A stretch of 61,542 nt of DNA, the filler included. It is 5 parts of 5 records of this genome, joined end to end, with 100 filler letters (N's around TTAATTAATTAA, not from the genome) between each part and the next. Parts side by side here need not be neighbours in the genome. Positions count along the whole stretch, not along the records: positions 53,725 to 61,542 come from SRR31156797_17894; 4 more parts are not named here. The stretch is one strand, 5' to 3'. Positions 8,807 to 61,542 of the stretch are shown piece by piece (the first letter of the stretch is position 1; every line of letters starts with the position of its first letter). A model generated the notes under the pieces. The model had not been told where the DNA came from and did not search any database. It saw nothing but the letters and a program-made list of their open reading frames with translations. A program made the translations under genes and the position numbers.

Positions 8807-8819
8807 GTGGTTTTAGAAC

Positions 8820-8861
8820 AAAAAAAAGCGCCCGGTAAGGGGGGAAGGAACCGGGCGCTTT
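8820..8861 (-). terminator. rho-independent terminator between lolA and xth
   Basis: 9-bp GC stem (8828-8836/8850-8858), extendable by A/T pairs, followed by 8 T on the minus strand. Confidence 0.8.
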
Positions 8862-8934
8862 GGGGCTCTCTCAAAAGCCTTCGGGCGATCGATGAAACCG
8901 CCCTTCGGATTCCATTGCGGAACCCTTGGCTCAT
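8820..8934 (-). ncRNA. candidate sRNA/leader with C/U-rich (anti-SD-like) loop and intrinsic terminator
   Basis: TTGTTT-17bp-CATTTT promoter-like element at 8969-8941; several short hairpins; terminal stem GCGCCCGGT/ACCGGGCGC with loop UCCUUCCCCCCUU and U8 tail. Confidence 0.45.
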
Positions 8935-8985
8935 GGTTCTAAAATGGGTGATCCCCGCCGTAAAAACAACCGGTGAGTCGATTCT

Positions 8986-9630
8986 TTAACGGTCCGGTCC
9001 GCGATTGGCGTAGGGATTGCGGAAGACAAACACTTCGGGATCGATTTCGACGCCGAAACGACTTCCCATCAGCGATACCGTCGTCATGATGCCCTGGGCG
9101 TCCAGGATCTCCCACTTCTTGAGCTGCAGCGGCTTGTCGGTCAGCACCAGGGTCATGCTGCCCTCGAGCGGATCGTCGGCGCGGGCCAGGGTCAGGCGGA
9201 ATGTGTGCGCGCCGTGTTCGAATCCGGTGATGATCAGCTGGTCCGAAAAAAACGAGATATTTTCGCTGACCAGAAGCCCGGCCGGCGTATCGTCGAGATC
9301 GAGCCAGCTGACCTGCTCGAGGCTTTTGTCGTGATAGATCAGGCGGCCCTTGGCGCCGATGATCTCGATCGGCGACGGCGGGTCGTAGGTGAGCTTCAGC
9401 TTGCCGGGCCGCCACAGGTGGATCTTGCCCTCGGCATAGCTGCCGTTGGTCGATACCTGCAGGAATCGGGCCTCCAGGCTCTGGATGGAATTGAGGTATT
9501 GCTCGATCTGTCCGATCGCGGCGCGATCGGAATCGCTTAAGGTCACCGGCTTGACGTCCTGGGCGGCGGCGCCGGCGGCCGTCATCCAGACGAAAACAAA
9601 CCCGAGCAGACAGGCGAGAATCGACCTCAT
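8986..9630 (-). CDS. lolA: outer-membrane lipoprotein carrier LolA
   Basis: Signal peptide; LEARFLQ..., RPGKLKLTY; conserved position downstream of ftsK. Confidence 0.88.
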   Translation of the reverse strand: MRSILACLLGFVFVWMTAAGAAAQDVKPVTLSDSDRAAIGQIEQYLNSIQSLEARFLQVSTNGSYAEGKIHLWRPGKLKLTYDPPSPIEIIGAKGRLIYHDKSLEQVSWLDLDDTPAGLLVSENISFFSDQLIITGFEHGAHTFRLTLARADDPLEGSMTLVLTDKPLQLKKWEILDAQGIMTTVSLMGSRFGVEIDPEVFVFRNPYANRGPDR

Positions 9631-9667
9631 GGCCCGGCCTATGGACGGTCTAGTGGAAAAACTGCGT

Positions 9668-12022: not shown

Positions 12023-12344
12023 ATATCGGTTCTACGATCTTTAGATTTACAAGACCTTAACGATGCGCTCCGGGGCCGCGGTGGTGGTGATCGGATCGGG
12101 GACCGGGGCGACGCGGACAATAACGGTTGAAGGGAAAACCGCTCAAGCCTTCCGGTAACGGATCGAGCATGGACTTTTCGGCGCGCATCCGGCCGAATAA
12201 AGGGCCGAAAGGGTACCGAAAGTAGCCCCGGCCCACCCCGCCCTTCAACAAATTGCGCCGCGTTTCACGATTGCGCCCTGGACAGCGGCGGACAAATGCC
12301 CGAAATCTAACGGATATCATTGAACGGATTGGCGGCGGGGCACC

Positions 12345-13580
12345 ATGGCCACACGCGGAAAGAACCGAAAAGCGATCGAGGCGGACGCTTTAATCGTCGG
12401 CGGCGGACTGGTCGGCGGCGTTTCGGCAATCGCGCTCGCCTCGGCCGGCATTTCCTCGGTGGTGGTCGAACGCGGCAATCCGGCCGAGCAGATGGACGTC
12501 GCCTTCGATGGGCGCGCCTTTGCCATTGCCTACGCCACCCGGCGCATGCTGCAAACCCTTGGAATCTGGGAAGGGATCGCCGATCCGTCGCCGATCCTCG
12601 ATATCCGCGTTTCCGAAAAAGGCTCGCGCCATTTCCTGCATTTCAACGACGGCGAGGGCGGCGACGAACCCTTCGGCCATATGGTCGAGGCCCGCCACAT
12701 GCGCCGCGCCATCCATGCCCGCCTCAAGGATATGGGCGAAATCCAAATGCTCGCCCCGACCGAACTGACCGGGCTGATACGCGGCGAATCGGGCGTTCGC
12801 GCCTTTTTGGCCGACGGCCGCGAGATTTCGGCCCGCCTGGTCATCGCCGCCGACGGCCGCAATTCGAAGGTCCGCAAGGACGCCGGCATCCGCACCACCG
12901 GCTGGTCCTACGGCCAGCATGGCATCGTCTGCACGGTCGAAACCGAAAAACACCACCAGAATGTGGCCCACGAACGCTTCATCCCGTCGGGCCCTTTCGC
13001 AATCCTGCCGCTGACGCAAAACCGCTGTTCCCTGGTCTGGGTTGAAAAATCGCGCCTGGCCGGACGTCAGATGGGGCTGGACGATGCCGAATTCCTGAAA
13101 GAACTCGGCCGCCGCTTCGGCGATTTCCTGGGCGAGCTCCGACTTACCGGCCCGCGCTGGTCCTATCCCTTGGGTCTGCAGTTCGCGCAAGCCGCCCACA
13201 AACCGCGTCTGGTGTTGATCGGCGATGCCCTGCACGCCATGCATCCGATCGCCGGCCAGGGGCTCAACATGGGTCTGCGCGATGTTGCGACATTGGCCGA
13301 GATCCTGGCCGAATCGGGGCGTCTCGGCCTCGATATCGCCGACGGCGTCGGTCTCGCCCGTTACGAGCGCTGGCGCCGCTTCGACAATTTAATGATGCTG
13401 GCGGCGACCGATACCATGGTCCGGACATTCTCCAACGATATCCGGCCGCTGCGCGCCGCCCGCGATCTCGGCCTGTCGGTGATCGGCGGCATCAAGCCGC
13501 TGAAGCGCCTGGCCATGCGCCATCACATGGGGACATTGGGCGACCTGCCGCGGCTTCTGCGCGGACAGCCGGTTTTGTAA
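12345..13580 (+). CDS. UbiH/UbiF/COQ6-family FAD-dependent ubiquinone hydroxylase
   Basis: GGGLVG Rossmann fold, ADGRNS, GDALHAMHPIAGQGLNMGLRD. Confidence 0.92.
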   Translation: MATRGKNRKAIEADALIVGGGLVGGVSAIALASAGISSVVVERGNPAEQMDVAFDGRAFAIAYATRRMLQTLGIWEGIADPSPILDIRVSEKGSRHFLHFNDGEGGDEPFGHMVEARHMRRAIHARLKDMGEIQMLAPTELTGLIRGESGVRAFLADGREISARLVIAADGRNSKVRKDAGIRTTGWSYGQHGIVCTVETEKHHQNVAHERFIPSGPFAILPLTQNRCSLVWVEKSRLAGRQMGLDDAEFLKELGRRFGDFLGELRLTGPRWSYPLGLQFAQAAHKPRLVLIGDALHAMHPIAGQGLNMGLRDVATLAEILAESGRLGLDIADGVGLARYERWRRFDNLMMLAATDTMVRTFSNDIRPLRAARDLGLSVIGGIKPLKRLAMRHHMGTLGDLPRLLRGQPVL

Positions 13581-13651
13581 AGAAAGTTGGATTGTAACCG
13601 TTCTCGGCGAGAAACCCGGCTGAAGGGAAAAGGAATGGAAAAATCGTCTAT

Positions 13652-14140
13652 CTATGGATTGCCAAAGCCTTTTGCCGCTGCCAACAGCCACCCTTGAGCC
13701 CGTTCGATTGCACGCAAACGGTCACCCAAGATCAGATCTTCCCGGATCATTCCTCTTGTGGTCCAGATGGCCGAAATTCCTCCGACGACACTGATCCCGA
13801 GAGAAATCGTCGCAACAACGGAACCAATCACTGGTCCCGTAAACGATACCGCCAGACCCCCGACGGCCAGGGCATTGGCGGCTGCTGCTCCCAAATAGCC
13901 ACCGATTGACGTCGCGTGCATGAGTTCAAAATCTCGGGCGTCATCGAGAATATCGACCCACTTCTTGATTTCGTCATCAGACAATTTGGAACTGGTGGGT
14001 GACGCCGGATCGAATCCGGCGAGACGTATGGCGAGCAAGGGGTCCTCGCACAATGCATCGACCAGATTTTGCAGTTTTTTAGGTGGTAGTGAAGTGCGCT
14101 CACCCGAAAGAAGGAGAGAGAGTTGATTCGCGGGAGACAT
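13652..14140 (-). CDS. hypothetical membrane protein (Gly/Ala-rich TM hairpin)
   Basis: 162-aa ORF 3 bp downstream of the preceding ORF; long hydrophobic GxxxG-rich stretch; lower GC than flanks. Confidence 0.6.
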   Translation of the reverse strand: MSPANQLSLLLSGERTSLPPKKLQNLVDALCEDPLLAIRLAGFDPASPTSSKLSDDEIKKWVDILDDARDFELMHATSIGGYLGAAAANALAVGGLAVSFTGPVIGSVVATISLGISVVGGISAIWTTRGMIREDLILGDRLRAIERAQGWLLAAAKGFGNP

Positions 14141-14143
14141 TGA

Positions 14144-14584
14144 TTAGACGCCGCCGGCCCGCTCTGAGGTTCCTTTGTCGGAAGTCGCGCTTTGGTCGCT
14201 GATCAATCGATCTAAAAGAAGCGAGGCGTCGATCTCATGGGCCTGCGCGTAACCATTTGGCGAGCGTGCGGCAAGGATTTCTCTGATCTGGTTTGACGTT
14301 TCTGTCGACATACTGGCGTGGCGTCGGATCTCTCGGTGGAGCGACATGGCCTCAAATAAACGCATTAACCCGACAGCAACGACGCATGATACAGCGAGAA
14401 CGGAGAGATTACCGGCCAATTCCCAAATACCCGGCAATGGCCTGAATTCGCCGCCAAGATAGCCACCAATCCACGCAACCGCTGCAACAATACCGATGAG
14501 TTGGAATCGGCCGGAATCGAAAAACCGCCATTCGGTTTTGGACTTGGTTTTTTCATGGTGCGGATTGATCAAAAATTCAGACAC
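14144..14584 (-). CDS. hypothetical membrane protein (2 TM + soluble tail)
   Basis: GTG start after GGAGAG; two hydrophobic segments; lower GC than flanks. Confidence 0.6.
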   Translation of the reverse strand: MSEFLINPHHEKTKSKTEWRFFDSGRFQLIGIVAAVAWIGGYLGGEFRPLPGIWELAGNLSVLAVSCVVAVGLMRLFEAMSLHREIRRHASMSTETSNQIREILAARSPNGYAQAHEIDASLLLDRLISDQSATSDKGTSERAGGV

Positions 14585-18288: not shown

Positions 18289-18388
18289 NNNNNNNNNNNN
18301 NNNNNNNNNNNNNNNNNNNNNNNNNNNNNNNNTTAATTAATTAANNNNNNNNNNNNNNNNNNNNNNNNNNNNNNNNNNNNNNNNNNNN
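18289..18388. other. artificial contig-join spacer
   Basis: 44 N + TTAATTAATTAA (stops in all six frames) + 44 N. Confidence 0.99.
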
Positions 18389-28582: not shown

Positions 28583-28682
28583 NNNNNNNNNNNNNNNNNN
28601 NNNNNNNNNNNNNNNNNNNNNNNNNNTTAATTAATTAANNNNNNNNNNNNNNNNNNNNNNNNNNNNNNNNNNNNNNNNNNNN
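28583..28682. other. artificial contig-join spacer
   Basis: N44-TTAATTAATTAA-N44. Confidence 0.99.
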
Positions 28683-36028: not shown

Positions 36029-36466
36029 ATGCGAACAAAATCTTCGAAACCCAAATACTTAATTTGCTCACTAACCTCGCTTGCGGCCAGAAAAATGGCG
36101 GCTCATTACTCACAAGTGCTAGCCCCATTTGGTTTGACCGCTCAACAGGTTATGGCCATGAACGTATTATGGGGCGAAGAAGGCCTAAGCCTGGGGGAAT
36201 TCGCCCGCAGAGCCGAAATAGGCAAGGCCGCGGCCACGGCCATGATCAAGCGCCTTGAAGGCATGGGACTCGTCGTCACCGGTCCCCACCCGGGCGACGC
36301 CCGTCTCAACGTCATAAAAGTCACCCCCATAGCCCGGGAACTGGCCCCGGAAGTCAGGGGAATCCTGGACGATATGGAAAAAAAGATCAGAGAAGCCATA
36401 GGCGAAGAAGACCTTAAAATAATGCTCCGAGGTCTTTCCGCCATATGCAAGCTCGATTTGAAATAG
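36029..36466 (+). CDS. MarR-family transcriptional regulator
   Basis: GLTAQQ..., IKRLEGMGLV...DARL winged helix. Confidence 0.88.
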   Translation: MRTKSSKPKYLICSLTSLAARKMAAHYSQVLAPFGLTAQQVMAMNVLWGEEGLSLGEFARRAEIGKAAATAMIKRLEGMGLVVTGPHPGDARLNVIKVTPIARELAPEVRGILDDMEKKIREAIGEEDLKIMLRGLSAICKLDLK

Positions 36467-36501
36467 GACTGATTGGATTAAGAATTATTGAGGTGAATCA
36501 C

Positions 36502-37185
36502 ATGCAAGCTGAAAAAATTCTGTCGGCGGCCCGGCAAAAAAAACAGGCCGCCTTATCCGAATATGAGTCAAAGTTGCTGCTGGCCGAATACGGAATCCCG
36601 GTAACCCGCGAAGGGTTGGCCCGCAGCAAGGACGAAGCAATGGCGCTGGCCCGCGAAATAGGTTTTCCCTTGGCCGTCAAAGCGTGTTCTCCAGAACTCA
36701 TGCATAAGAGCGAAGGAGGCTGGATTGAGCTTAACATAAAGAATGAAGCTGAATTAACCCAGGCTTTTGAAAACATAATCAGTAAAGCCGGAGACGCCAT
36801 TGACGGGGTTTTGATTCAGGAAATGGTCTCGGGGCAGCGTGAACTTGTTGCGGGATTAAACCGCGACCCCCAGTTCGGACCATGCATAATGCTCGGCCTG
36901 GGCGGAGTAATGACCGAAGTATTAAAAGACACAGCGTTTCGAATGGCGCCCATTGACAAAATAGAGGCCCGGGACATGGCGGACCAACTGCGCTGTCGCT
37001 CAATGTTGGATGAATTCCGCGGCCAGGCGCCGGCCGACATGGACGCGGTCTGCCGCACCCTGGAAGCGATCGGCCGAATCGGCCTTGAACACGAAACCGT
37101 TGCGGAAATAGACGTTAACCCATTGATAATCGGGAAAGACGGCCGCGTGGTCGCTGTAGACGCGCTCGTCGTTTTAGACGGCTAA
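36502..37185 (+). CDS. acdB: ADP-forming acyl-CoA synthetase beta subunit (stand-alone ATP-grasp)
   Basis: RBS GAGGTG; LSEYESKLLLAEYGIP, HKSEGG (phospho-His), DPQFGP, EIDVNPL. Confidence 0.9.
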   Translation: MQAEKILSAARQKKQAALSEYESKLLLAEYGIPVTREGLARSKDEAMALAREIGFPLAVKACSPELMHKSEGGWIELNIKNEAELTQAFENIISKAGDAIDGVLIQEMVSGQRELVAGLNRDPQFGPCIMLGLGGVMTEVLKDTAFRMAPIDKIEARDMADQLRCRSMLDEFRGQAPADMDAVCRTLEAIGRIGLEHETVAEIDVNPLIIGKDGRVVAVDALVVLDG

Positions 37186-37306
37186 CACCAGGCCATTCAG
37201 GGTGAATTTCAGACCGGTCATTACCGGTAGTATTAACTATATTTTGGGGGACAGTCGCCGGCCGACGCTCATTCCCATGCAATATTCGAAAGGCTATCAC
37301 TTCAAA

Positions 37307-38770
37307 ATGATTACAAATATAGAAGAAAGCCCGCTTTATCGCATTGCCGATCCCAGAAACCTCGCCTTTTACGGCGCTTCCAACAGCGCCCGTTCCATGG
37401 GCTCCAATTTATTAATGTCCACACTGGAAATGGGATACAAGGGGACCATTTACCCGATCCATCCCAAGGAAAAAGAAGTTCAGGGATTCAAAGCCTATAC
37501 CAGCATTCTGGACGCCCCGGAAATACCGGATGCAGCCGTTATGGTCCTGCCGACCAAACTGGTCAACAGCGCCCTGGATGAATGCGGCAGAAAAGGGATT
37601 AAATCCGTAATTATCGTCACCGCTGGCTTCAAGGAAGTCGGCGGCGACGGCCCCCGACTACAGAAGGAAATTGAAGAAACCGCTGACAAATATGGAATTC
37701 GCATCTTAGGCCCGAACTGTATTGGAGTAGCCAATCCCCATAAAAGCCTGAACACCACTTTTGTACCCTATGAAGGCAAACCCGGCTTCATCGGCCTGGC
37801 TTCACAGAGCGGCAGCTTTGTAACCCAGATGTTCAACTACCTGTCTCGTTACGGCCTTGGGTTCAGCACTGCCTTCAGCGTCGGCAATGAAGCCAACGTA
37901 GATATCGTGGACGGAATGGAATACCTGGCGCTCTGCCCGAATACAAAAGTAATCGGGCTTTATATAGAAGGCATCAAGCGGGGCCGGGAATTTGTTGAGG
38001 CGGCCAGGGCCATTGCCCCAGACAAGCCGATTGTGGCCCTGTATGTGGGCGGCAGTGAAACCGGAAAAAAAGCGGGATTTTCCCACACCGGATCCCTGGC
38101 CGGTCCGGATGAATTATATGAAGGCGTCTTCCGGCAGAGCGGAATCATCAGGGCGCATTCAATCAACGAACTTTTTGATTATTGCTGGGTGCTGGGATCG
38201 CTTCCGCTCCCGCGCGGCAATAGAGCAGTCGTCCAGACTCATTCCGGCGGCCCCGGCGCCGCGGCCGCGGATTCATGCGGCCGGGCAGGCCTTGACCTTC
38301 CGCCTCTTTCCGCGGAAACAAAAGAAAAACTGTCTGATCTCGTTCCCCATACCGGCAGCCTTAACAACCCGGTGGATGTGACTTTTTCTAGAAACCCGCA
38401 GGATTTTTACACTACGATTCCGGAGATTCTGCTCCAGGATCCGAATGTAGACATGCTTATGGCCTACTACATGACCCCGGATGCCGTCGTCCAAAGAAAC
38501 ATCGAACAAATGGGGGTGTCCGGCGATAAGGCGGTCGCCGAAGCAAAAAAAGTCATGCAGGCATTCGCCGCTTCTGTATTGAAAATGGTTAAAGAACAGG
38601 ACAAGCCCATAATCGGGTATACCTGGCGGGACCTGAACGAGAGTTTCACAAAGGAACTCATTGACGGCGGCTTTCCGGTTTTTCCCGACGCCCAAAGGGC
38701 CGCCAGGGCCATGGGGGCCATGGTCCATTATAAAAAACTGCGCGACAAGATCCTTTCCGCCGATAAATAA
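37307..38770 (+). CDS. acdA: ADP-forming acyl-CoA synthetase alpha subunit, paralog 1
   Basis: CoA-binding domain, GPNCIG, SQSGS, GNEA, SHTGSLAG (phospho-His), NPVD. Confidence 0.9.
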   Translation: MITNIEESPLYRIADPRNLAFYGASNSARSMGSNLLMSTLEMGYKGTIYPIHPKEKEVQGFKAYTSILDAPEIPDAAVMVLPTKLVNSALDECGRKGIKSVIIVTAGFKEVGGDGPRLQKEIEETADKYGIRILGPNCIGVANPHKSLNTTFVPYEGKPGFIGLASQSGSFVTQMFNYLSRYGLGFSTAFSVGNEANVDIVDGMEYLALCPNTKVIGLYIEGIKRGREFVEAARAIAPDKPIVALYVGGSETGKKAGFSHTGSLAGPDELYEGVFRQSGIIRAHSINELFDYCWVLGSLPLPRGNRAVVQTHSGGPGAAAADSCGRAGLDLPPLSAETKEKLSDLVPHTGSLNNPVDVTFSRNPQDFYTTIPEILLQDPNVDMLMAYYMTPDAVVQRNIEQMGVSGDKAVAEAKKVMQAFAASVLKMVKEQDKPIIGYTWRDLNESFTKELIDGGFPVFPDAQRAARAMGAMVHYKKLRDKILSADK

Positions 38771-39299: not shown

Positions 39300-40793
39300 A
39301 TGAAAACAGAAAGGCCCAGCATGTTGAACTCAATCGAAGAAAGCCCTCTGCACGACATCGTCTCCCCTAAAAGCATAGCCTTGATGGGCGCCTCAACCGG
39401 TTTTTCCATGGGTACTGTCATCCTCAACCGGCTTCAGGAAATCGGTTTTGAAGGAAACATATATCCGGTTCATCCCAAAGCGGATGAAATTCGGGGTCTG
39501 AAGGCCTATGCAAGCATCCTGGATGTGCCGGAACCGCCGGACCTGGCCGTTATGGTGCTCCCCGCGCCCACAGCAGTTCAAACATTGGAAGAATGCGGCC
39601 GCCGGGGAGTTAAAAACGCGGTCGTGGTCTCGGGAGGATTCAGGGAAGTCAAGGGAGTAGGGGAAGACCTGGAAAAGGATCTGCTTGAAACAGCCGGGCG
39701 GCACAACATGCGGCTAGTCGGGCCGAATTGCCTGGGCGTGGCCGCTCCTCGTTATAAAATGAACACCACCACTTTCCCCTTGTTCAGCAAGCCCGGTTCC
39801 GTCGGCCTGATTTCCCAGAGCGGCAGTTTTGTAACCCAGATGTTTCAACAGGTTGAAAGCCTGGGCATCGGGCTAAGCGCGGCCTTCAGCACAGGTAATG
39901 AATCCGACCTCGACCTGGTGGACTGCCTGGAATACTTAGGCGCCTGCCCCCATACCAAAGTCATCGGCCTATACCTTGAAGGCATAAGGCGGGGACGCGA
40001 CTTTGTCCGAGTCGCCCGATCAATAGTCCCTGACAAGCCCGTGGTCGCTTATTATGTCGGCGGCAGCGAAACCGGCAGACGGGCCGGTTATTCACATACC
40101 GGCGCCCTGGCAGGCCCGGACGGTCTTTATGAAGGCGTATTCAGGCAGGCCGGAATAGTCCGGGCCCGGTCCGTAATGGAATTATTCGACTTTTGCGCCG
40201 GCCTCAGCCTGATGTCCCCGCCGGCCGGATCGAGGGTTGCCGTGCTGACCGATTCCGGAGGCCCGGGAGCGGCGGCCGCCGACGCCTGCGGCCGGACCGG
40301 CCTTGAACTCCCCGGCTTCTCGCCTGAAACCGGGGAAAAACTTTCCCCTTTCATTCCCGCAACCGGAAGCGTAAATAATCCGGTCGACCTGACTTTTTAT
40401 AAAAATCCGGATGATTATACGACCAACATTCCGGAAATACTTTTGCAGGATCCGAACGTCGACATGCTGCTCATGTATTTTCTAATGCCTCGTGAAATAG
40501 TATCCATAGCCATGAAAAGTATGGGCGTGCCTGCGGACCAGGCCGAAGCGGAAAGCGACAACATGTTGAAAAACCAATACAAGTCGATTGCCGATTTGAT
40601 TAAAAACAACCCAAAGCCCATTATCGGGTACACATTTCGCAGCCAGGAAGATCCGGGTATTAAAGTGCTGACCGAATGCGGACTCCCTGTTTTTCAGGGC
40701 GCTGAAAGAGCGGCCCGGGCAACGTACGCCCTGGCCGCTTATACCGATTTAAGAAATAAGGTTGCTAAATCATGGAACGCAAGCAACACCTGA
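39300..40793 (+). CDS. acdA: ADP-forming acyl-CoA synthetase alpha subunit, paralog 2
   Basis: Clearly homologous to 37307-38770 (IEESPL, GPNCLG, SQSGSFVTQMF, SHTGALAG, IPEILLQDPNVDML). Confidence 0.9.
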   Translation: MKTERPSMLNSIEESPLHDIVSPKSIALMGASTGFSMGTVILNRLQEIGFEGNIYPVHPKADEIRGLKAYASILDVPEPPDLAVMVLPAPTAVQTLEECGRRGVKNAVVVSGGFREVKGVGEDLEKDLLETAGRHNMRLVGPNCLGVAAPRYKMNTTTFPLFSKPGSVGLISQSGSFVTQMFQQVESLGIGLSAAFSTGNESDLDLVDCLEYLGACPHTKVIGLYLEGIRRGRDFVRVARSIVPDKPVVAYYVGGSETGRRAGYSHTGALAGPDGLYEGVFRQAGIVRARSVMELFDFCAGLSLMSPPAGSRVAVLTDSGGPGAAAADACGRTGLELPGFSPETGEKLSPFIPATGSVNNPVDLTFYKNPDDYTTNIPEILLQDPNVDMLLMYFLMPREIVSIAMKSMGVPADQAEAESDNMLKNQYKSIADLIKNNPKPIIGYTFRSQEDPGIKVLTECGLPVFQGAERAARATYALAAYTDLRNKVAKSWNASNT

Positions 40794-44992: not shown

Positions 44993-45092
44993 NNNNNNNN
45001 NNNNNNNNNNNNNNNNNNNNNNNNNNNNNNNNNNNNTTAATTAATTAANNNNNNNNNNNNNNNNNNNNNNNNNNNNNNNNNNNNNNNNNNNN
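44993..45092. other. artificial contig-join spacer
   Basis: N44-TTAATTAATTAA-N44. Confidence 0.99.
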
Positions 45093-53113: not shown

Positions 53114-53623
<510 letters not shown>

Positions 53624-53624
53624 C

Positions 53625-53724
53625 NNNNNNNNNNNNNNNNNNNNNNNNNNNNNNNNNNNNNNNNNNNNTTAATTAATTAANNNNNNNNNNNNNNNNNNNN
53701 NNNNNNNNNNNNNNNNNNNNNNNN
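53625..53724. other. artificial contig-join spacer
   Basis: N44-TTAATTAATTAA-N44. Confidence 0.99.
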
Positions 53725-53944
53725 TAAACGGGTCTACAGCCAGGGGCCGGTCTTCAACCGCGCCAGGATACCAGATATCAATGGTCGTCCAGGCAGGATC
53801 GATCAAGCCTGTTTCGACACCGGCACCAACCTCAATGGTTCTGTTGGGTATAGGGATTCTTGGACTTACAGGCATTGCCCGGAAAAGATAATTTCACCTG
53901 GTTCCAAAACCCGGCAGCCGGATGTTTGTCCTGAATGATATGTG

Positions 53945-53970
53945 CGCGGATCTGTACCATCAGATCCGCG
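53945..53970. other. perfect 10-bp hairpin downstream of the ack fusion
   Basis: CGCGGATCTG-TACCAT-CAGATCCGCG; no poly-T tail. Confidence 0.5.
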
Positions 53971-54034
53971 ATCAGTCAGTTGCAAATACATAAATTGGCT
54001 TTTCAAAACAGAAACATCAAATTACATTGTTGTA

Positions 54035-54195
54035 TTATTTCAGGTAGATTTTTTTTATCTTCTCGCAGGTTCCGTCCTTTTTCATATGTTCCAAAGCGTT
54101 CTGCAGAAGGTTCACGATTTCATCGGAAATGTCTCTATTCAAGGCAATATAATAATCGTATCTGTCGTCGAGCTTTACCACCTTTTCCAGCAGAC
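54035..54195 (-). pseudogene. C-terminal remnant of a family-3 solute-binding protein
   Basis: YYIALNRDISDEIVNLLQNALEHMKKDGTCEKIKKIYLK* is a typical SBP_bac_3 C-terminus; the remaining ~200 aa are absent. Confidence 0.55.
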
Positions 54196-54262
54196 CGAGA
54201 CCTTTGCCCTGATTCTGTCCAGGACCTCCTGCCATCTTTTCTTTTCCACCCGGCGATCCTGA

Positions 54263-56575
54263 TTACTGCACGCTGACCAGGGTTCCTTCCATGCCGGTCT
54301 TGATGTTGGCCGCATTGGCTTCGTCCGTATCGATATGCATGGCCAGACGATAATCCGGATGGACCCGCACCAGGACATCACCGAAGATGAGCGTTCGTTC
54401 CCCTTCCACCCGGACCATTACCAGATCCCCATCCTTCAGCCCGAACGAAAGGGCATCTTCAGGGGGCATATGTATGTGACGGAAGGAGCAGATGACGCCC
54501 TTGGGAATCGAACACGCCCCCTGGGTTCCTTCGAGTTTCAATCCGGGACTGCCTTCTATGGATCCGGATGCCCGGATCGGGGCTTTCACCCCTAATTTGA
54601 ATTCTTCCGTCATGGAGATCTCGACCTGGGTTTCTTTTCTTCTGGGCCCCAGCACCCTGACCCGGTCAACCCGTCCCTTGGGCCCCACCAGATTGACGGT
54701 CTCCTGGCAGGCGAATTGGCCCGGCTGGGAAAGATCGGAGCGGTGGGTCAGCTGAACGTCATCCCCAAATAACATCGCGATTTCCTCTTCGGCCAGATGA
54801 ACGTGATGGGCTGAGACCTCGATGGGGAATTTTTTTTCTTTTTTCTTTTGAATCACCTGGGAAACATTTTCCCGTCCCAGGGCACGAATTGTCTCCCGGG
54901 CGATCATTCGGCCTTCGTCCGCCGGAACCACCAGCACTTTTATCCCGGCGTCCTTTTCTGAGATCTCAACCGGTCCATCCAATTCAGATGGTACAGCGTT
55001 ATTCTTTTTGTCATCGAGCTCGACCCCCATGGGAAACAGTCCCTGGCAGGCCAGCCCCCTCACCCAGGCGCTTTTTTCGGCAGTTCGGCCGGTGAAAACC
55101 AAGGCATCCAGTCCTCCCAGGGCCGAGGTATAGGCCCCGATATATTTTCTTATCCGGTAACAGAATGCCTGGATCGTGAGCTGCGCCCGTGAATCACCTT
55201 TATTGGCGGCCACTTCAATATCATTGAGGTCACTGGAAATCCCGGACAGTCCCTTCAATCCGCTCTGAAGGTTGAGCAGCTCATCCACTTCATCCAGGGA
55301 CAACCCTTTCTCCCGGCACAGATGGATAACGATGGAAGGATCCATATCCCCGCACCGGGTATCCATCATCAAGCCGGCCAAAGGGGTCATCCCCATGCTG
55401 GTGTCAACCGAACGGCCGTGATCAATCGCGCACAGGGAGGCGCCATGATCCAGATGACACGTCACCAGTTTCAATTCGCGATAATCTTCTTTCAGATACG
55501 CGGCGGCTTGGAGCATTGCGTAGTTATGCGAAATGCCATGAAATCCGAATCGCCGGATTTTATCATTCTCAAAATATTCATGGGGAAGCCCGTAAACGCA
55601 GGCATGGGGCGGCATTTTTTGATGAAAAGCGGTATCAAAGACAGCCACCTGGGGAACATTGGAAAAACACCGCTGACTCATTTTAATAACCATAAGGTTC
55701 GGCGGATTGTGCAGGGGGGCCAGCCTCGCATATTCATCAATATCACTTAAGACACGGTCATCAATAAGCACGGCATGACCGTACTTGTCCCCTCCATGCA
55801 CGACCCTGTGACCGATTGCGCTGAGGTCATCCATGTCCCGGATAACCCCATGCACGGGATCGACCAGCACACCGATCAGGCCTTTAAAGGCGTCTTCATA
55901 ACCGACCAGCCCCAGCTCCTTTTTAATCACACCTTTGGGAGTCACCGCGGTGATATAATACGTCTTGTCACCGGACCTTTCGATGACTCCGGTCGTATTC
56001 CCGGATTTATCCCCCGTATTGAAAAAACTGTACTCAATGGATGACAGGCCACAATTGAGTACCAGGATCTTCTGGGGAGTCGTTGTGGACAACGCCAGGC
56101 CATAGGGATCTGTTTGGCTTTTCCAGGCATCACTCACCCGGGCTTGTTCTTCCTCATTCTCCTGACGGCTTTTCAAACGGGCGGTTATGGTTTGCGCAAG
56201 CACTTTCACCGCCTGAACATTAACCGCCACAAAAGAGGAAAACACATCCTGGGGAATAAGAAAAAGATGACATTTACTAATGGCCAGGACATCGGCACTG
56301 GTGGGTTCGCCGGTAAGCAGGGACATTTCGCCCAGAATATCCCCCGGCTTCAGCAGACCGAGCCGAATACGCTTTTCCGCTTCTCCGGAAATGACAGCTT
56401 CGGCTTCGCCATCCAGCATCACACCTAAAAACTTCCCCGGCTGGCCGAACTGTATGATAACGTCTCCGGAAGCATATGACCGCAGATGAGACGCCTCGAT
56501 CAACCGGTTTAGTTCTTCCTGAGAGAATCCGCCGAACAACGGAATCCCGGCTAAAAATTCAGCTATCTGTTCCAT
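54263..56575 (-). CDS. cNMP-binding domain + acetate-kinase-like domain + PduL phosphotransacylase fusion (770 aa)
   Basis: RBS GGAGG, ATG 56575; GDILGEMSLLTGEPTSADV (cNMP); HRVVHGG, APLHN, DTAFH, GFHGISH (AckA); SAHHVHL, LSQPGQFA, RHIHM, MHIDTDEANAA (PduL). Confidence 0.92.
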   Translation of the reverse strand: MEQIAEFLAGIPLFGGFSQEELNRLIEASHLRSYASGDVIIQFGQPGKFLGVMLDGEAEAVISGEAEKRIRLGLLKPGDILGEMSLLTGEPTSADVLAISKCHLFLIPQDVFSSFVAVNVQAVKVLAQTITARLKSRQENEEEQARVSDAWKSQTDPYGLALSTTTPQKILVLNCGLSSIEYSFFNTGDKSGNTTGVIERSGDKTYYITAVTPKGVIKKELGLVGYEDAFKGLIGVLVDPVHGVIRDMDDLSAIGHRVVHGGDKYGHAVLIDDRVLSDIDEYARLAPLHNPPNLMVIKMSQRCFSNVPQVAVFDTAFHQKMPPHACVYGLPHEYFENDKIRRFGFHGISHNYAMLQAAAYLKEDYRELKLVTCHLDHGASLCAIDHGRSVDTSMGMTPLAGLMMDTRCGDMDPSIVIHLCREKGLSLDEVDELLNLQSGLKGLSGISSDLNDIEVAANKGDSRAQLTIQAFCYRIRKYIGAYTSALGGLDALVFTGRTAEKSAWVRGLACQGLFPMGVELDDKKNNAVPSELDGPVEISEKDAGIKVLVVPADEGRMIARETIRALGRENVSQVIQKKKEKKFPIEVSAHHVHLAEEEIAMLFGDDVQLTHRSDLSQPGQFACQETVNLVGPKGRVDRVRVLGPRRKETQVEISMTEEFKLGVKAPIRASGSIEGSPGLKLEGTQGACSIPKGVICSFRHIHMPPEDALSFGLKDGDLVMVRVEGERTLIFGDVLVRVHPDYRLAMHIDTDEANAANIKTGMEGTLVSVQ

Positions 56576-57263
56576 GGATACTACCTCCCAAAGAAGTAAT
56601 TCATATATTAAAAACAAACGACATGGGAGACACTTTGATATCATTCGGATGACCTGAACGATTCACTGATATGACGTGGGATATCGACATCATTTTTGAA
56701 TCATTCAGGATAAATATATCAAATTCATCATCGGCATTCAAGGATCTGTCGAAACGCTTAGTTCAATTCCCGTTCACTGGGGCAACGGGGAAGATTATCC
56801 ACGGGCATCCCATTCAGTCTGTCCTGTGGGCTTATTCTTGGCAAAAAAACGGATAAACAAAAGGTCAGTTATGCCCACGTCACAGAGTGGATTGAGCGGG
56901 GGATGCTCTTTCTTCGCAACATATTTTTCTATATCCCTGTCTTGATTACTAAAATAGAGCCAAAGAGGAAGCATCATGGAAACCGTTCCAGAAGCTGCAT
57001 GAAATACCACATCATGCTTTTGAAAGGCGTCTTTTCAGCTTTTCCGCCCTGGATGTTATCTTCATCATTGAAACCCCAGGTAATTTGCTTTATAAAAAGA
57101 GGATAGCCTTTTGCAACGGGATGAAGCAGCCCCGGGATTACCAGAACTAATTTCCAGCACGCCTGACGCCATTTTGAAACAACCATGTCACAATCACCTT
57201 TGGAACCCTGGTGGCTGAGGTTAACAGAAGAATATCAGAAAGGATCGAGGGCTGGATCATATC

Positions 57264-57791
57264 ATGGGTAAACCAGGAAAAGAACCTTCAAAAACCCAAT
57301 TGATTCTGGATGCCGTCCGGAACAAGGCTGTGGCAGAAAGCTCCCCGGATATGCAGGAAGAAACGGTGGAGCTTGTCATCTTCACCATGGCCCATCGCTA
57401 TTTTGCCTTTCAGGGAAGAGAGGTGAGAGAAATTCTGCCGTTTTCACCCATCACCGAGGTGCCGGGGTGTCCCCGGACCATCCGGGGGATTATCAATGTG
57501 CGCGGGGAGATTGAATCGGTGATAAACCTCCATACCCTTCTTGAACTGGATGAAATGCCGGTCTCCCCCACAACACGGTTTATTCTTGGACGATCCGGGG
57601 AGCTGACGTCCGGTATCCAGGTGGAGCATGTGGCGGATGTGATCTCCATTGAAAGGACGAGGATAAAGCCTGCCATCTCCACATTGTCCCCCGCCATAAG
57701 GAACTATGCCCATGGAGGTGAGGAATTGTATAAAGGGCACTATGTCATTATGCTCAGTATGGAACATGTGTTTAAAAACCTGTTGAACTGA
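57264..57791 (+). CDS. cheW: chemotaxis coupling protein CheW
   Basis: VREIL...ITEVPG...GIINVRGEIESVINL. Confidence 0.9.
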   Translation: MGKPGKEPSKTQLILDAVRNKAVAESSPDMQEETVELVIFTMAHRYFAFQGREVREILPFSPITEVPGCPRTIRGIINVRGEIESVINLHTLLELDEMPVSPTTRFILGRSGELTSGIQVEHVADVISIERTRIKPAISTLSPAIRNYAHGGEELYKGHYVIMLSMEHVFKNLLN

Positions 57792-57827
57792 TCCAGCCAT
57801 GTACGAAATAAAAGGGGAAACTTTTCC

Positions 57828-58211
57828 ATGAAAAGTGACTTGACCCTTCTTTTATTCAATATCATGGACATTGACTTTGGGATGGATGTGACGCCGGTCA
57901 AAGCCATGGACCATGTGGAAGGCCTTCCGGACGGAGAATCCGGGGTTGTCTGGTTCCATGAAAAAATTGATTTCCCCCGCACCCCTGTGCTATATAATTT
58001 GCCAAGGGCGCTGCGCATTGAAACAGAAAAAAAACGGTTTCACCTGGTTATTGATAATCCCCGGGATATGCCCCTTGTTATTCCCATTGAGAAGATAAAA
58101 CCTTTTCCTGTACTGGTTGAACAGTTCCTCCCAGCCTCACCGCTTTGGGCCGTATGTCCTCACGAAGAGCGTATTTTGCTATTGGTGGATCCCCTTGAAA
58201 TGTACCGGTGA
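57828..58211 (+). CDS. short divergent CheW-like protein
   Basis: LLLFNIMDIDFGMDV..V...IKPFP...ILLLVDP; lacks the NxRG core. Confidence 0.65.
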   Translation: MKSDLTLLLFNIMDIDFGMDVTPVKAMDHVEGLPDGESGVVWFHEKIDFPRTPVLYNLPRALRIETEKKRFHLVIDNPRDMPLVIPIEKIKPFPVLVEQFLPASPLWAVCPHEERILLLVDPLEMYR

Positions 58212-58297
58212 ATCTCCCCGATGCCCCCCGGAAGAATGGAATTCCCGGGGTGCAGACTTAAAACTCGGGTGTCTAACCTTAAATTTGAGGATTGACC

Positions 58298-60319
58298 ATG
58301 AATTTAAGACAGAAGAACACCATTCCCTCTTTCATTATCATGATCGCCATTTTCGCCGTAGGATCGTTGGTAACGGTGAATAAGCTGAACGAATTAAAGA
58401 AGAACATCGTCTCCAGGCCAATGGAAAATTCCATGGAGGTGCTTTTGCGAAGCGTGGAATTCACCGCCCAGCAGACCCTGGAAAAATCGTCGCTTTTCTC
58501 CCGGTTGCCCCAGGTGATCAAGGCCTTTGAACTTGCCCATTCCGGCGACATCGATGATCCCCGGGACGAGCAGGGCCAACGGGCACGGGAAATGCTCAGG
58601 CGGGAACTCAGGACCGCCATGGACGGTTATGAGATCGTCACCGGCAACGGCCCGATGAAGCTTCATTTTCACCTGCCCAACGGCCGAAGCCTGGTTCGCA
58701 TGTGGCGACAGCGGCAGATCAGGATCAATGGTAAGTGGGAAGACAGGTCCGATGATATTTCCGACTTCCGCCATACGGTTCTGGACGTCAACACCACGGG
58801 GAAACCGGTCAGGGGAATTGAACTTGGCCGGGGCGGATTTGTGATCCGGGGACTTTCTCCCATTGTGAATTCCCAGGGACGCCCCCTTGGATCAGTGGAG
58901 GTGCTGTTTGATTTTGCCCCCCTGGTGAAAACCCTGTTCGCGGATGATCATTATTTTGCCCGGCTATACATGAACAAGCAGTTTCTCTCCATTACCCACC
59001 GGCTCCAGAACACGGGAAAATACCCCGTTGTTGAAAATCGCTATGTCCAGGTCATGGGAAAGCAAATAGAGGATGGACCCGACGGGAAATGGGCTCTCTC
59101 CCTCATGAATCAGGGAAAGGCCGATTTCGCCATTCAAATGAACGGAAAAAAAGCCATGGCTGCTTTTCCAATCAAAGATTACAAGGCGACCCAGATCGGT
59201 GTGATGACCCTGGAAACGGATATGACGGAAGAGTATGCCCTGGTTCGAAATATTATTGTATTCCAGGTGGTGATGCTTTTTCTGGTTATCATCGCCCTGG
59301 GCGTGCTCAGTTCCCTGTTCCTGTCCCGAACCGTTTTAAAACCGGTGGCCGGCATAATGGCCATATCCAGGCAATTGTCCAAAGGGGACTTGAGGAATAC
59401 CGTTGAAGTGACCTCAAAGGATGAAATCGGGGTCTTGTCGGAAACCATCAATTTCATGGTCCGGTCGGTCCGGGAGGTGGTGAGCAAGCTCGTCGAGGTG
59501 GTGACCCGTCTGACCACCAACAGCGACCAGATCAACAAGGCCCTCCAGGACCAGATATCCAGCGCTTCGGAACAGTCGGCATCGGTGTCTGAAATCACCT
59601 CCACCATGGCTGAATTTTCCGCATCCTCCAGACAGATTGCCGAACATGCCGATACGGTTCTCACCATTGCCGAAGAGGCCCTTAACCACGCCAATGAAGG
59701 GGAACAATCCGTTTCACGGGTGACGGATAAGATGGAAGAGATTCACACCGGCAATGAGAATACGGTAAAGGGAATCCATGAGCTGGGAAACAAAACCCGT
59801 GAAATTGCCAAAATCATGGAGATCATCAACAACATTGCGGACCAGACAAAGCTGATTGCCTTTAATGCCGCCCTGGAGGCCTCCAGCGCCGGTGAAGCCG
59901 GAAAACGGTTTGGCGTGGTCGCCATTGAGATCAGGCGCCTGGCCGAAAATGTGGAAGCCTCCACCCGTGAGACGGAAAAAAGGGTAAACGAAATACAGGA
60001 TGCGGTGGACAACATGATGCTGGCTTCGGAACAAAATACCCGTTGCATCAATGAAGGGTTGAGTTTTACCTCCCACACCCGGGAAACACTTGCCAATATT
60101 GTCGGCAGGTCCCAGGATACCCGGGATGCGGCTCAACAGATCACCCTGTCCACCCAGCAGCAGAAAACCGCCAGTGACCAGGTGGTCCAGGCCCTGCGGG
60201 AGATCGATGAGAGTGGACGGCATACCACCCGGGCCATCAAACAGATCGGGGATAACGGGGAAACATTGAACCAGCTGGCAGAACAGCTGGATACACTAAT
60301 TCATGGATTTAAGCTTTGA
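58298..60319 (+). CDS. methyl-accepting chemotaxis protein (TM-Cache-TM-HAMP-MA)
   Basis: [15 protein letters not shown]...DDISDFR...GIELGRGG (Cache), DEIG (HAMP), [30 protein letters not shown]. Confidence 0.95.
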
Positions 60320-60343
60320 TTTTTTACGTCTAGGAACAATGCC

Positions 60344-61369
60344 ATGAAACCGGTACGGGTTTTGATTGTGGATGACAGCTCCCTGGTTCGGGATTTCCTG
60401 ACGGAGATTCTGGCATCGGACAAGGAGATCGAGGTGGTGGGCAAGGCCGGCAACGGCCTTGAAGCCCTGGAAAAGATTGCCGCGCTCAAGCCGGATATTG
60501 TCACCATGGACATTAAAATGCCTGAAATGGATGGGATGATGGCCATTGAACAGATCATGGGCGGAGAAAATTCACTGCCCATTCTGGTGGTAACCTCCCT
60601 GGATGATTCCGGCACCGCATATGACGCGATCTCAAGGGGAGCACTGGAAGTGATTCCCAAACCGAATATGAGGCGATTGAACGCCGAATCCTTTGCCCAA
60701 AGGATCAAACTGCTTTCCAAGGTAAAAGTGGTGCGTCATATTCGAAGCCGGACCTACAAAAAAAATAATACTGAAAACAGGTGTTCTGCCAGGACAATCC
60801 CTCAAATCATTGCCATTGCAAGCTCCACAGGGGGGCCCGGGGTGTTGGCCTGTCTGTTTGGCAGGCTTGAACATTGTCTGGATGTACCGGTGGTGGTGGC
60901 CCAGCACATTGCCAGGGGATTTGATACCGGCCTGGTGAAATGGCTGAACCGCAAGGCCCCCAATGCCCACGTAAAAAAGGGGGTTCCAGGGGAACGGCTC
61001 AAGCCGGGGGTCATCTATATTTCACCCTCCTACGGCCACATGGAGATCACCCCCCGGAACACCATTGAGGTCTTTCCTCCCGGGCCGAGGGATATTTATA
61101 CGCCCTCCTGCGATCGGCTGCTGACTTCCGTTGCCAGGACACATGGGCAATTTTCCATGGCCCTTGTATTGACGGGGATGGGCAATGACGGAACAGCAGG
61201 CGCCCAGGCCGTCAAACAGGCCGGAGGCACAACCATTGCCCAGGATAAAGCCTCGTCCGTTGTGTATGGCATGCCCCGGGCAGCCGTGGAAAAAGGCTGC
61301 ATAGATCGGGTGATGTCCCTCAATGAAATAAGCAAATGCCTGAACGGCATGATCAGGGAAAGATCATGA
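60344..61369 (+). CDS. cheB: chemotaxis methylesterase CheB (REC + catalytic domain)
   Basis: IVDDS, MDIKMP, ASSTGGP, QHI, TGMGNDG, VYGMP. Confidence 0.95.
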   Translation: MKPVRVLIVDDSSLVRDFLTEILASDKEIEVVGKAGNGLEALEKIAALKPDIVTMDIKMPEMDGMMAIEQIMGGENSLPILVVTSLDDSGTAYDAISRGALEVIPKPNMRRLNAESFAQRIKLLSKVKVVRHIRSRTYKKNNTENRCSARTIPQIIAIASSTGGPGVLACLFGRLEHCLDVPVVVAQHIARGFDTGLVKWLNRKAPNAHVKKGVPGERLKPGVIYISPSYGHMEITPRNTIEVFPPGPRDIYTPSCDRLLTSVARTHGQFSMALVLTGMGNDGTAGAQAVKQAGGTTIAQDKASSVVYGMPRAAVEKGCIDRVMSLNEISKCLNGMIRERS

Positions 61370-61542
61370 GCTTTTCCTGTATTAAAAAATTTGTTTACCA
61401 GCGAACCGGCCTTACCTTTGACGCCTATCGCACCATGATACTCAAGGAGAAGATTTCCCGGCACATGGCGGCATTGGAGATGGATGACATGAAAACCTAT
61501 TGGTATGAAATCCGTCATGACCAAACACTCTTTGATAACCTT
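61366..61542 (+). CDS. cheR: chemotaxis methyltransferase CheR, N-terminal part (runs off window; absent from ORF track)
   Basis: ATGA overlap with the cheB stop; MSFSCIKKFVYQRTGLTFD...LKEKISRHM...TYW resembles CheR_N. Confidence 0.8.
   Translation, partial: MSFSCIKKFVYQRTGLTFDAYRTMILKEKISRHMAALEMDDMKTYWYEIRHDQTLFDNL

Follow-up and report, generated by a model that had tools for sequence, protein, structure and literature searches.

The phosphotransacetylase-acetate kinase (Pta-Ack) pathway is the textbook route by which anaerobes make ATP from acetyl-CoA, and it sets the cellular levels of acetyl phosphate. In the stretch of DNA analysed here (61,542 nucleotides, hereafter the window), one gene on the minus strand encodes a protein of 770 amino acids in which a cyclic-nucleotide-binding (CNB) domain, an acetate kinase (Ack) domain and a PduL phosphotransacylase domain follow one another. 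Compared with Pta-AckA of Escherichia coli and Methanosarcina thermophila, the fusion is predicted to share the same two reactions, the kinase fold and the catalytic residues, but the unrelated PduL fold stands in for Pta (PF01515), everything lies in a single chain with an added CNB-type domain, and the ATP-site motifs are altered in this gene. The core of the argument for channelling between the two enzymes is already in print as a remark, since Erbilgin et al. 2016 commented on an Ack-PduL fusion and gave this rationale for it; a CNB domain is not mentioned in the Ack-PduL passages of that paper (PMC4784909). As far as our searches go, there is no description of the remodelled ATP site in the subclade to which our gene belongs, nor of the conserved sensor without Arg. 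We consider it fairly likely that the PduL half of the protein is normal and that its kinase half handles acetyl phosphate, but not as a standard ATP/ADP acetate kinase, because its nucleotide pocket was remodelled in a burst of substitutions confined to this domain and was then kept by purifying selection.

Kinase residues are numbered here as in M. thermophila, after alignment with the structure 1G99. Asn7, Arg91, Asp148, His180, Arg241 and Glu384, which we take to be the catalytic and substrate residues of the M. thermophila enzyme, and Val93, Leu122, Phe179 and Pro232, which presumably form its acetate pocket, are all identical in our gene. Every nucleotide-site motif, however, is altered (Table 1), a feature missed by the initial annotation of this DNA. 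The canonical motifs xNCGSSSLK, CHLGNGA, MGTRxGD and FTGGIGEGS are found in 118 of 121 sequences (our gene and its 120 listed homologues), and the only ones to deviate in PHOSPHATE1, PHOSPHATE2, LOOP3 and ADENOSINE are the gene itself, P0002 (which is the locus L001) and P0003. Likewise, Gly331, Gly210, Arg285 and Lys14 are present in all 14 single-domain acetate kinases sampled. Among the columns at least 95% conserved in the other 118 sequences, those changed in all three deviating ones amount to 19 of 170 in the kinase domain, compared to 0 of 39 in CNB and 0 of 93 in PduL, and about half of the 19 fall within the five named nucleotide-site motifs.

What these positions do has been described for the M. 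thermophila acetate kinase (MtACK). According to the sections of PMC4390882 that deal with them, Asn211 forms a hydrogen bond to Gly239 and touches the beta-phosphate, Gly331 is in contact with both the alpha and the beta phosphate, Arg285 stacks planar on the adenine, and enzymes with replacements at Asn211, Gly239 or Gly331 had a 6- to 200-fold lower specific activity. The double variant G331Q-I332M had its kcat reduced 50- to over 100-fold, and Gly331 is called "completely conserved" in all ATP-dependent acetate kinases in the corresponding part of PMC5517563. The initial annotation had assumed that AckA performs the step after PduL; this is doubtful for our gene, whose five nucleotide-site motifs are altered at such activity-critical residues.

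The protein could nevertheless run the standard Pta-Ack route in one chain, with PduL forming acetyl phosphate, the kinase making ATP from ADP and a cyclic-nucleotide-like ligand acting as a switch. Most of the family, with its intact canonical motifs, very likely works in this way. In our gene the retained catalytic residues and acetate pocket would be in keeping with it, as would a TIGR00016 score above the cutoff and the fact that MtACK variants changed at 211, 239 or 331 keep some activity in the assays reported in PMC4390882. But at least nine simultaneous changes in the nucleotide site, including an Arg at Gly331, an Asp at both Gly210 and Gly239 and the loss of Arg285, together with the confinement of the substitution burst to the kinase domain, argue against it, and we regard a standard route as unlikely for this gene.

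The history of the kinase change was read from domain trees. In the Ack tree, our gene, P0002 and P0003 group as a clade (SH-aLRT 100) that has a long stem and is nested (99) among the canonical P0099, P0004, P0014 and P0027, and the ancestor was therefore canonical. The stem of the clade measures 0.34 substitutions per site in Ack, versus 0.098 in CNB and 0.066 in PduL, and the root-to-tip distances relative to the canonical sisters are 2.53-fold, 0.67-fold and 1.37-fold, respectively. Our gene and P0004 are 62.5% identical in Ack and 84% in PduL, while P0004 and P0027 are 81% and 84% identical. Between the window and L001, the Nei-Gojobori dN/dS was 0.157 for Ack, 0.161 for PduL and 0.142 for CNB. 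The kinase domain thus underwent a specific burst of substitutions and afterwards came under purifying selection. As this constraint followed the burst, and as all acetyl phosphate and Mg residues were kept, we favour a changed function over a dying domain.

Similar changes were found elsewhere in the family. Kinase motifs were lost or changed with an intact PduL in P0122, P0127, P0129, P0131, P0133, P0143 and L007, among which P0143, P0133 and P0131 lose Arg91, His180 or Arg241; in P0140 the situation is inverted, the kinase being canonical and the metal ligands of PduL degenerate. On the tree, the "altered" kinase label takes six changes, at least three of which are forced by well-supported branches. 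The separate clade of L007 and P0129 independently carries S10L, N211V, G239P and G331D, and an Asp at 331 is also reported, in the passage of PMC5517563 on them, for putative non-ATP kinases of Anaerolineaceae. That the same positions changed recurrently suggests a repeated functional move, although it could alternatively reflect subfunctionalisation of paralogues.

These other branches also bear on the idea that the Ack domain is now a pseudokinase, serving as a dimerisation scaffold and/or as an acetyl phosphate- or acetate-sensing module for an active PduL. In line with it, the three relatives differ from one another at the remodelled positions, P0143, P0133 and P0131 show outright decay of the kinase next to an intact PduL, and the tree needs the above six changes, at least three of them forced, when the label is "degenerate". 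Moreover, another contig of the window encodes proteins resembling ADP-forming acyl-CoA synthetases, a possible source of substrate-level ATP. On the other hand, all six catalytic/Mg residues and the acetate pocket are kept in all three sequences, a residue set that a scaffold would not require, and the kinase dN/dS is on par with that of PduL. We therefore hold such a pseudokinase to be somewhat unlikely.

The closest precedent for a changed donor site is the pyrophosphate (PPi)-dependent acetate kinase of Entamoeba histolytica (PPi-ACK), which is presented in the relevant passages of PMC5517563 and PMC4390882 as the one acetate kinase known to work without ATP. Its sequence departs from the consensus by Thr at 211, Ser at 239, Asp at 330, Gln at 331, Met at 332 and Glu at 335, and the putative PPi-ACKs of Entamoeba and Anaerolineaceae are marked by an extra Gly in PHOSPHATE2 and by the Asp at 330, as set out in the same part of PMC5517563. 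Like the Entamoeba enzyme (4H0O), our gene is altered at 211, 239, 331, 332 and 335, but it has His, Asp, Arg, Thr and Lys where PPi-ACK has Thr, Ser, Gln, Met and Glu, and PPi-ACK has no fusion partners. The Gly331-Ile332 positions, at which larger residues occlude the adenosine pocket in the Entamoeba type, are occupied by Arg-Thr in our gene.

For the kinase half, catalysis with a different phosphoryl partner is a tentative option, and so is a non-catalytic role in binding acetyl phosphate or acetate or as a scaffold, while residual ATP-dependent activity of a weakened ordinary kinase appears unlikely. A more specific proposal, which we put forward as quite improbable, is that in this Desulfobacteraceae-like lineage the fused kinase switched to phosphate (Pi)/PPi or another non-adenylate partner instead of ADP/ATP. 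If true, one protein would interconvert acetyl-CoA and acetate via acetyl phosphate while making or consuming pyrophosphate, and bacteria would have a counterpart of the Entamoeba enzyme, altered by other substitutions where that enzyme is altered. For a sulfate reducer, this could couple the PPi from sulfate activation to acetate activation; there are older claims of a PPi:acetate kinase in sulfate reducers. Judging from its Asp at 331, the L007/P0129 lineage may have made a similar switch.

Several points weigh against our reading of the fusion, with a kinase half that works differently from an ATP/ADP acetate kinase. First, membership of the Entamoeba type was rejected, as CHLDHGAS has the canonical length and position 330 is Gly, and closing the adenosine pocket of MtACK gave no PPi use in the variants described in PMC5517563. 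Second, the three relatives disagree at 211 (H/Q/K), 239 (D/D/S), 331 (R/R/S) and 335 (K/S/S), which looks more like a relaxed constraint on the pocket than like a newly defined site, and the subclade is defined by three sequences only, all from metagenome-derived assemblies. Third, single MtACK variants retain measurable ATP-dependent activity in the data given in PMC4390882, and a weak standard kinase could therefore account for our gene as well. Fourth, we infer channelling and allostery from the fusion alone, and our search, with subscription-only papers and supplements outside it, found no literature on the sensor-containing form or on an assay of any fusion.

The phosphotransacylase half compares closely with the PduL of Rhodopseudomonas palustris (5CUO). 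In the structural sections of PMC4784909, Zn1 is held by His48, His50 and Glu109 and Zn2 by His157, His159 and His204, Arg103 contacts the phosphate, and CoA is contacted by Ser45, Lys70, Arg97, Leu99 and Asn211. All six Zn ligands and Arg103 are identical in our gene (alignment E-value 9e-46, 44% identity), as are Ser45, Arg97, Leu99 and Asn211; only Lys70 differs, being Ser in the fusion. The PduL part of the AlphaFold2 (AF2) model superposes on 5CUO with a Foldseek TM-score of 0.96 and a root-mean-square deviation of 1.0 Å. The initial annotation had called PduL complete with its His metal motifs, and the identity of every metal ligand bears this out. We regard this half as an active phosphotransacylase.

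PduL is otherwise known from bacterial microcompartments (BMC). The fusion's PduL shares fold, zinc ligands and Arg103 with the BMC form (5CUO; Erbilgin et al. 2016, PMC4784909), but it has no free N-terminus, no shell genes nearby and Ser at Lys70. Being internal to the fusion, it is therefore without an N-terminal encapsulation peptide, and Ack-fused PduLs without such peptides are noted in the passages of PMC4784909 that mention them. The match to the BMC_EutD model NF040837 reached 242.5 bits, under the cutoff of 315. The BMC shell families PF00936 and PF03319 had no match among the open reading frames (ORFs) of the contig that carries the gene, nor within about 6 kb on either side of the gene in eight related loci (ORFs of at least 80 amino acids). 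No sign of a BMC association of this PduL, as an N-terminal peptide or as shell genes, was thus found in the contig or the eight loci. Hence the earlier remark that no microcompartment genes lie nearby held as far as it goes, but this contig spans only 53725-61542.

The N-terminal sensor matches CNB domains in profile and fold. Its matches among sequences of known structure include the CNB domains of the regulatory subunit of PKA (PKA-R) and of PKG (E-values down to 2e-20), and the Foldseek hits include PfPKA-R, PKG, Rv0998 Pat and TbPKAR. The phosphate-binding cassette keeps Gly82-Glu83 and has Thr92 at the position of the Arg that binds the cyclic phosphate: in HMMER alignments, Thr92 falls on the Arg of the ...P-R-[ST]-A... 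motif of Plasmodium PKG and Toxoplasma CNB domains, and also of PKA cassettes. Glu83, Ser85 and Thr92 do not vary in any of the 121 sequences (the gene and the 120 listed homologues). In 20 wider three-domain relatives, Arg never occupies this position (Thr 8, Ala 7, Ser 3, Ile 1, Val 1), and five of the 20 carry, as part of a "GDRT" motif, an Arg that precedes it by one residue. The replacement of the phosphate-binding Arg by Thr (GEPTSA), noticed at first in this gene, is therefore a property of the family, and with the Arg absent family-wide the accompanying suggestion that the ligand may not be cAMP is plausible, as is, on the same residues, a ligand other than cAMP or cGMP. As the dN/dS of CNB given above indicates purifying selection, the sensor is not a relic.

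Separately, L003, L005, L006, L007 and L008 read TGDRT-x-AD, with the Arg one residue ahead of the canonical position, and this subgroup might, unlike the GEPT group, still bind a cyclic phosphate.

Two described proteins offer a comparison for this sensor. The CNB of the mycobacterial acetyltransferase Pat (Rv0998) binds cAMP. Like our fusion, Pat (4AVA) joins an N-terminal CNB to an enzyme of acetyl-CoA/acetate metabolism, and a weak match of our protein to the Pat-type NCBIfam model NF058543 (E-value 7e-7) was found, but the catalytic domain of Pat is a GNAT. In trypanosomatid PKA-R, Thr318 and Asn442 occupy the Arg positions and the protein binds purine nucleosides, a specificity that also requires Ala202 to be replaced by Glu, as described in the portions of PMC10959531 that concern these sites. 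The fusion resembles this PKAR (6FLO/6H4G) in having a polar residue in place of the cassette Arg (Thr318 in site A there) with Gly-Glu kept, but the position of Ala202 is the invariant Ser85 in the fusion family, not Glu. We accordingly rejected a nucleoside-binding CNB of the trypanosomatid type: Thr92 would fit, Ser85 does not. In the same portions of PMC10959531, trypanosomatid PKAR shows that an Arg-less CNB can sense a non-cyclic ligand with high affinity.

Across the family, the proposed scheme is as follows. PduL would interconvert acetyl-CoA and Pi with acetyl phosphate and CoA, and Ack would interconvert acetyl phosphate and ADP with acetate and ATP; a BMC-independent PduL would thus take the place of Pta, fused behind an acetate kinase. 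The fusion would keep the two enzymes close together in 1:1 stoichiometry, and a ligand, probably not cAMP or cGMP, would set their activity via the helical linker, since a conformational signal could be passed on by elements such as its two long modelled helices.

In many uncultured lineages, such a family would combine a ligand sensor with a non-homologous Pta-Ack route, all in a single polypeptide. The fusion is annotated only as "acetate kinase", and metabolic reconstructions may therefore miss both the phosphotransacylase step and its control. The Arg-less CNB may feed a new small-molecule signal into central carbon flux, while the rebuilt ATP pocket would be a natural experiment on the choice of phosphoryl donor in acetate kinases, the determinants of which were left open by the mutagenesis of the Methanosarcina and Entamoeba enzymes covered in PMC5517563. 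That one catalytic half was lost or altered several times independently could also make the family a useful system for the origin of pseudoenzymes within fusions.

The gene itself is one uninterrupted ORF, from an ATG at 56575 to a stop codon at 54263-54265 on the minus strand. A longer frame from an ATG at 56644 (793 amino acids) was judged unlikely, and the start at 56575 is preferred, because GGGAGG stands 8 nucleotides upstream of it and homologues of 769-779 amino acids align from residue 1. Pfam was scored on the 793-residue form; residue numbers refer to the 770-residue form (minus 23). The domain matches listed in Table 1 scored 64.7 bits for PF00027 (cutoff 27.5), 401.7 bits for PF00871 and 249.4 bits for PF06130, and E-values of that size mean that the assignments are not due to chance. 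From NCBIfam, TIGR00016 (ackA) reached 403.6 bits (cutoff 293.4) and NF011652 (phosphate propanoyltransferase) 252.3 bits (cutoff 209), and the equivalog models were all below their own cutoffs for the acetate kinase part. The kinase domain also matched the structures 2IIR and 1G99 with E-values of 1e-105 or better and a Foldseek TM-score of 0.95. These full-length matches and the ORF call agree with the three-domain ORF of 770 residues first proposed, the domains lie inside the position ranges then given, and the motifs then listed (HHVHL, RHIHM, HIDTDE and GEPTSA) are all present in its translation. The AF2 model of the whole fusion has a mean pLDDT of 91.4 and a pTM of 0.91. No solved structure spanning more than one of the three domains was found by PDB sequence search and Foldseek. 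A complex prediction of residues 1-168 against 169-770 scored 0.00 in two runs without controls, which gives no verdict and is not evidence.

Table 1. Position of the fusion gene, its domains and its diagnostic motifs in the window (kinase residues numbered as in M. thermophila, PduL residues as in 5CUO).
Feature	Position	Strand	Basis
CNB-Ack-PduL fusion protein, whole ORF, 770 amino acids and stop	54263..56575	-	ORF call, Pfam, homologues
Shine-Dalgarno GGGAGG, 8 nucleotides before ATG 56575	56584..56589	-	sequence inspection
CNB domain core, residues 32-117	56225..56482	-	Pfam PF00027 cNMP_binding, E 7e-18
Phosphate-binding-cassette equivalent GEMSLLTGEPTSAD, residues 82-95	56291..56332	-	HMMER alignments to PDB CNB domains
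Helices 120-138 and 141-153 linking CNB to kinase	56117..56218	-	AF2 secondary structure, pLDDT 83-91
Acetate kinase (ASKHA) domain, residues 169-560	54896..56071	-	PF00871, E 3.5e-120, profile 1-392/392
PHOSPHATE1 LVLNCGLSSIE: S10L, K14E; Asn7 kept	56033..56065	-	alignment; Ser 117/121, Lys 119/121
PHOSPHATE2 CHLDHGAS: G210D, N211H	55436..55459	-	alignment; Gly 118/121, Asn 116/121
LOOP3 MDTRCG: G239D; Arg241 kept	55349..55366	-	alignment
LOOP4 SSDLND: R285N	55220..55237	-	alignment
ADENOSINE FTGRTAEKS: G331R, I332T, G333A, Lys at the Asn335 position	55070..55096	-	alignment; Gly331 118/121
PduL phosphotransacylase domain, residues 584-759	54299..54826	-	PF06130, E 2.3e-74, profile 1-176/176
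PduL SAHHVHLA: Ser45, His48, His50 (Zn1) equivalents	54791..54814	-	5CUO alignment
PduL VRVLGPRRKETQVEI: Arg97, Leu99, Arg103 (phosphate contact), Glu109 (Zn1) equivalents	54617..54661	-	5CUO alignment
PduL FRHIHM: His157, His159 (Zn2) equivalents	54467..54484	-	5CUO alignment
PduL AMHIDTDEAN: His204 (Zn2), Asn211 equivalents	54314..54343	-	5CUO alignment

By scoring 8000 candidates in a word-indexed search, we obtained 7902 homologues with an E-value of at most 0.001, of which the 120 listed matches were examined. PF00027, PF00871 and PF06130 occur in the same order in all 120, which are 761-779 amino acids long and 61-90% identical to our protein; they come from sources that include Desulfobacteraceae, Aminicenantes and Chloroflexi metagenome-assembled genomes, contigs as long as 4.35 and 4.43 Mb carry some of them, and the database calls them "acetate/propionate family kinase" or "acetate kinase". 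A scan of genome contigs gave 22 loci, eight of which match from residue 6 or earlier through 770 and were all confirmed by Pfam as full-length three-domain proteins: Desulfobacteraceae (L001, JAAEMK01, 90% identical, with the same 770-residue frame on a 90.7-kb contig), Chitinivibrionales (L003), Elusimicrobia (L004), Kiritimatiellae (L005), Polyangiaceae (L006), Rhodocyclales (L007), Myxococcales (L008) and a "delta proteobacterium" (L011). Besides these, the Polaromonas locus L013 encodes an Ack-PduL without the sensor, and L012 has a tblastn match over residues 164-769.

A joining of three unrelated genes by mis-assembly or by a lost stop codon was also considered, as the window is an artificial concatenation of contigs whose source is evidently a draft assembly. 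The ORF lies entirely within one contig segment, however, the same frame recurs at 90% identity on the independent contig of L001, and order and length are the same in 120 of the 120 listed homologues, with an AF2 pTM to match. The listed homologues and the eight loci from several phyla dispose of the assembly artefact raised as a caveat with the initial annotation, and we regard its probability as negligible. Judged from its sequence and those of its homologues, the ORF truly belongs to a family of single-chain CNB-AckA-PduL proteins that is widespread.

An exhaustive HMMER search of representatives at 50% identity found 4224 proteins with an E-value of at most 1e-30, most of them plain acetate kinases. 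Among the 150 that were listed, 44 have at least 440 amino acids, and by Pfam these comprise cNMP + Ack + PduL (16), Ack + PduL (14), PduL + Ack in the reverse order (one, P0150), cNMP + Ack (three), Ack with a receiver domain (two; C-terminal in P0162, an N-terminal response-regulator receiver in P0179) and Ack alone (eight). The modules can therefore be freely recombined, and among these 44 long representatives the three-domain form is the most frequent. The architecture is common rather than singular, and its Ack-PduL core with the channelling rationale had been published in the part of PMC4784909 cited above.

The window consists of at least five contigs joined by four N44-TTAATTAATTAA-N44 linkers (18289-18388, 28583-28682, 44993-45092 and 53625-53724), so that arguments from gene neighbourhood are valid only inside each segment. 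Beyond a 688-bp spacer, a divergent cluster on the plus strand encodes CheW (57264-57791), an unknown protein of 127 amino acids, a dCache_3-HAMP-MCP protein (58292-60319) and CheB (60344-61369). This chemotaxis cluster (57264-61369) is common only to the 90% identical L001 (2009-7562 there, plus CheR), and we do not draw a functional link from it to the fusion gene. No gene neighbourhood was conserved across phyla in the eight loci compared, and the fusion gene therefore behaves as a stand-alone unit. In the region 53725-57400, a Rfam scan with E-values up to 0.1 gave no match, and scans for promoters (five promoter-like sites, 3.4 expected) and terminators (four terminator-like sites, 4.2 expected) were uninformative.

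The similarity of about 90% in nucleotides to L001 ends exactly at the stop codon of the fusion gene. Downstream of it, L001 has a 4'-phosphopantetheinyl transferase gene, whereas in the region 53725-54261 the window has instead, 28 nucleotides past the stop, an ORF of 66 amino acids on the minus strand (54035-54235) that matches the C-terminal end of SBP_bac_3 only weakly and below threshold (E-value 0.0096), possibly a gene remnant. On the other side, about 271 bp of the spacer (56742-57012) do not align to L001, although both flanks do. In other loci, the sensor-less Ack-PduL gene of L013, from a Polaromonas metagenome-assembled genome, is followed by DUF3141 and PEMT-like genes, with a thiolase gene about 3.6 kb downstream (region 7962-14520), and in L005 the strand opposite to the fusion gene carries an acylphosphatase gene (11357-11632) some 1 kb downstream of it.

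Two further observations concern other contigs of the window. A C-terminal fragment of a family-A DNA polymerase (PF00476, 255-381/381) is encoded on the minus strand at 53114-53497, its upstream part being lost at the contig end at 53624. On the plus strand of another contig, a MarR gene precedes a group encoding an ATP-grasp_5 protein (36445-37185) and two CoA_binding_2/Succ_CoA_lig/Ligase_CoA_2 proteins (37202-38770 and 39300-40793), a domain make-up that is that of ADP-forming acyl-CoA synthetases, an alternative ATP-coupled route from acyl-CoA to acid.

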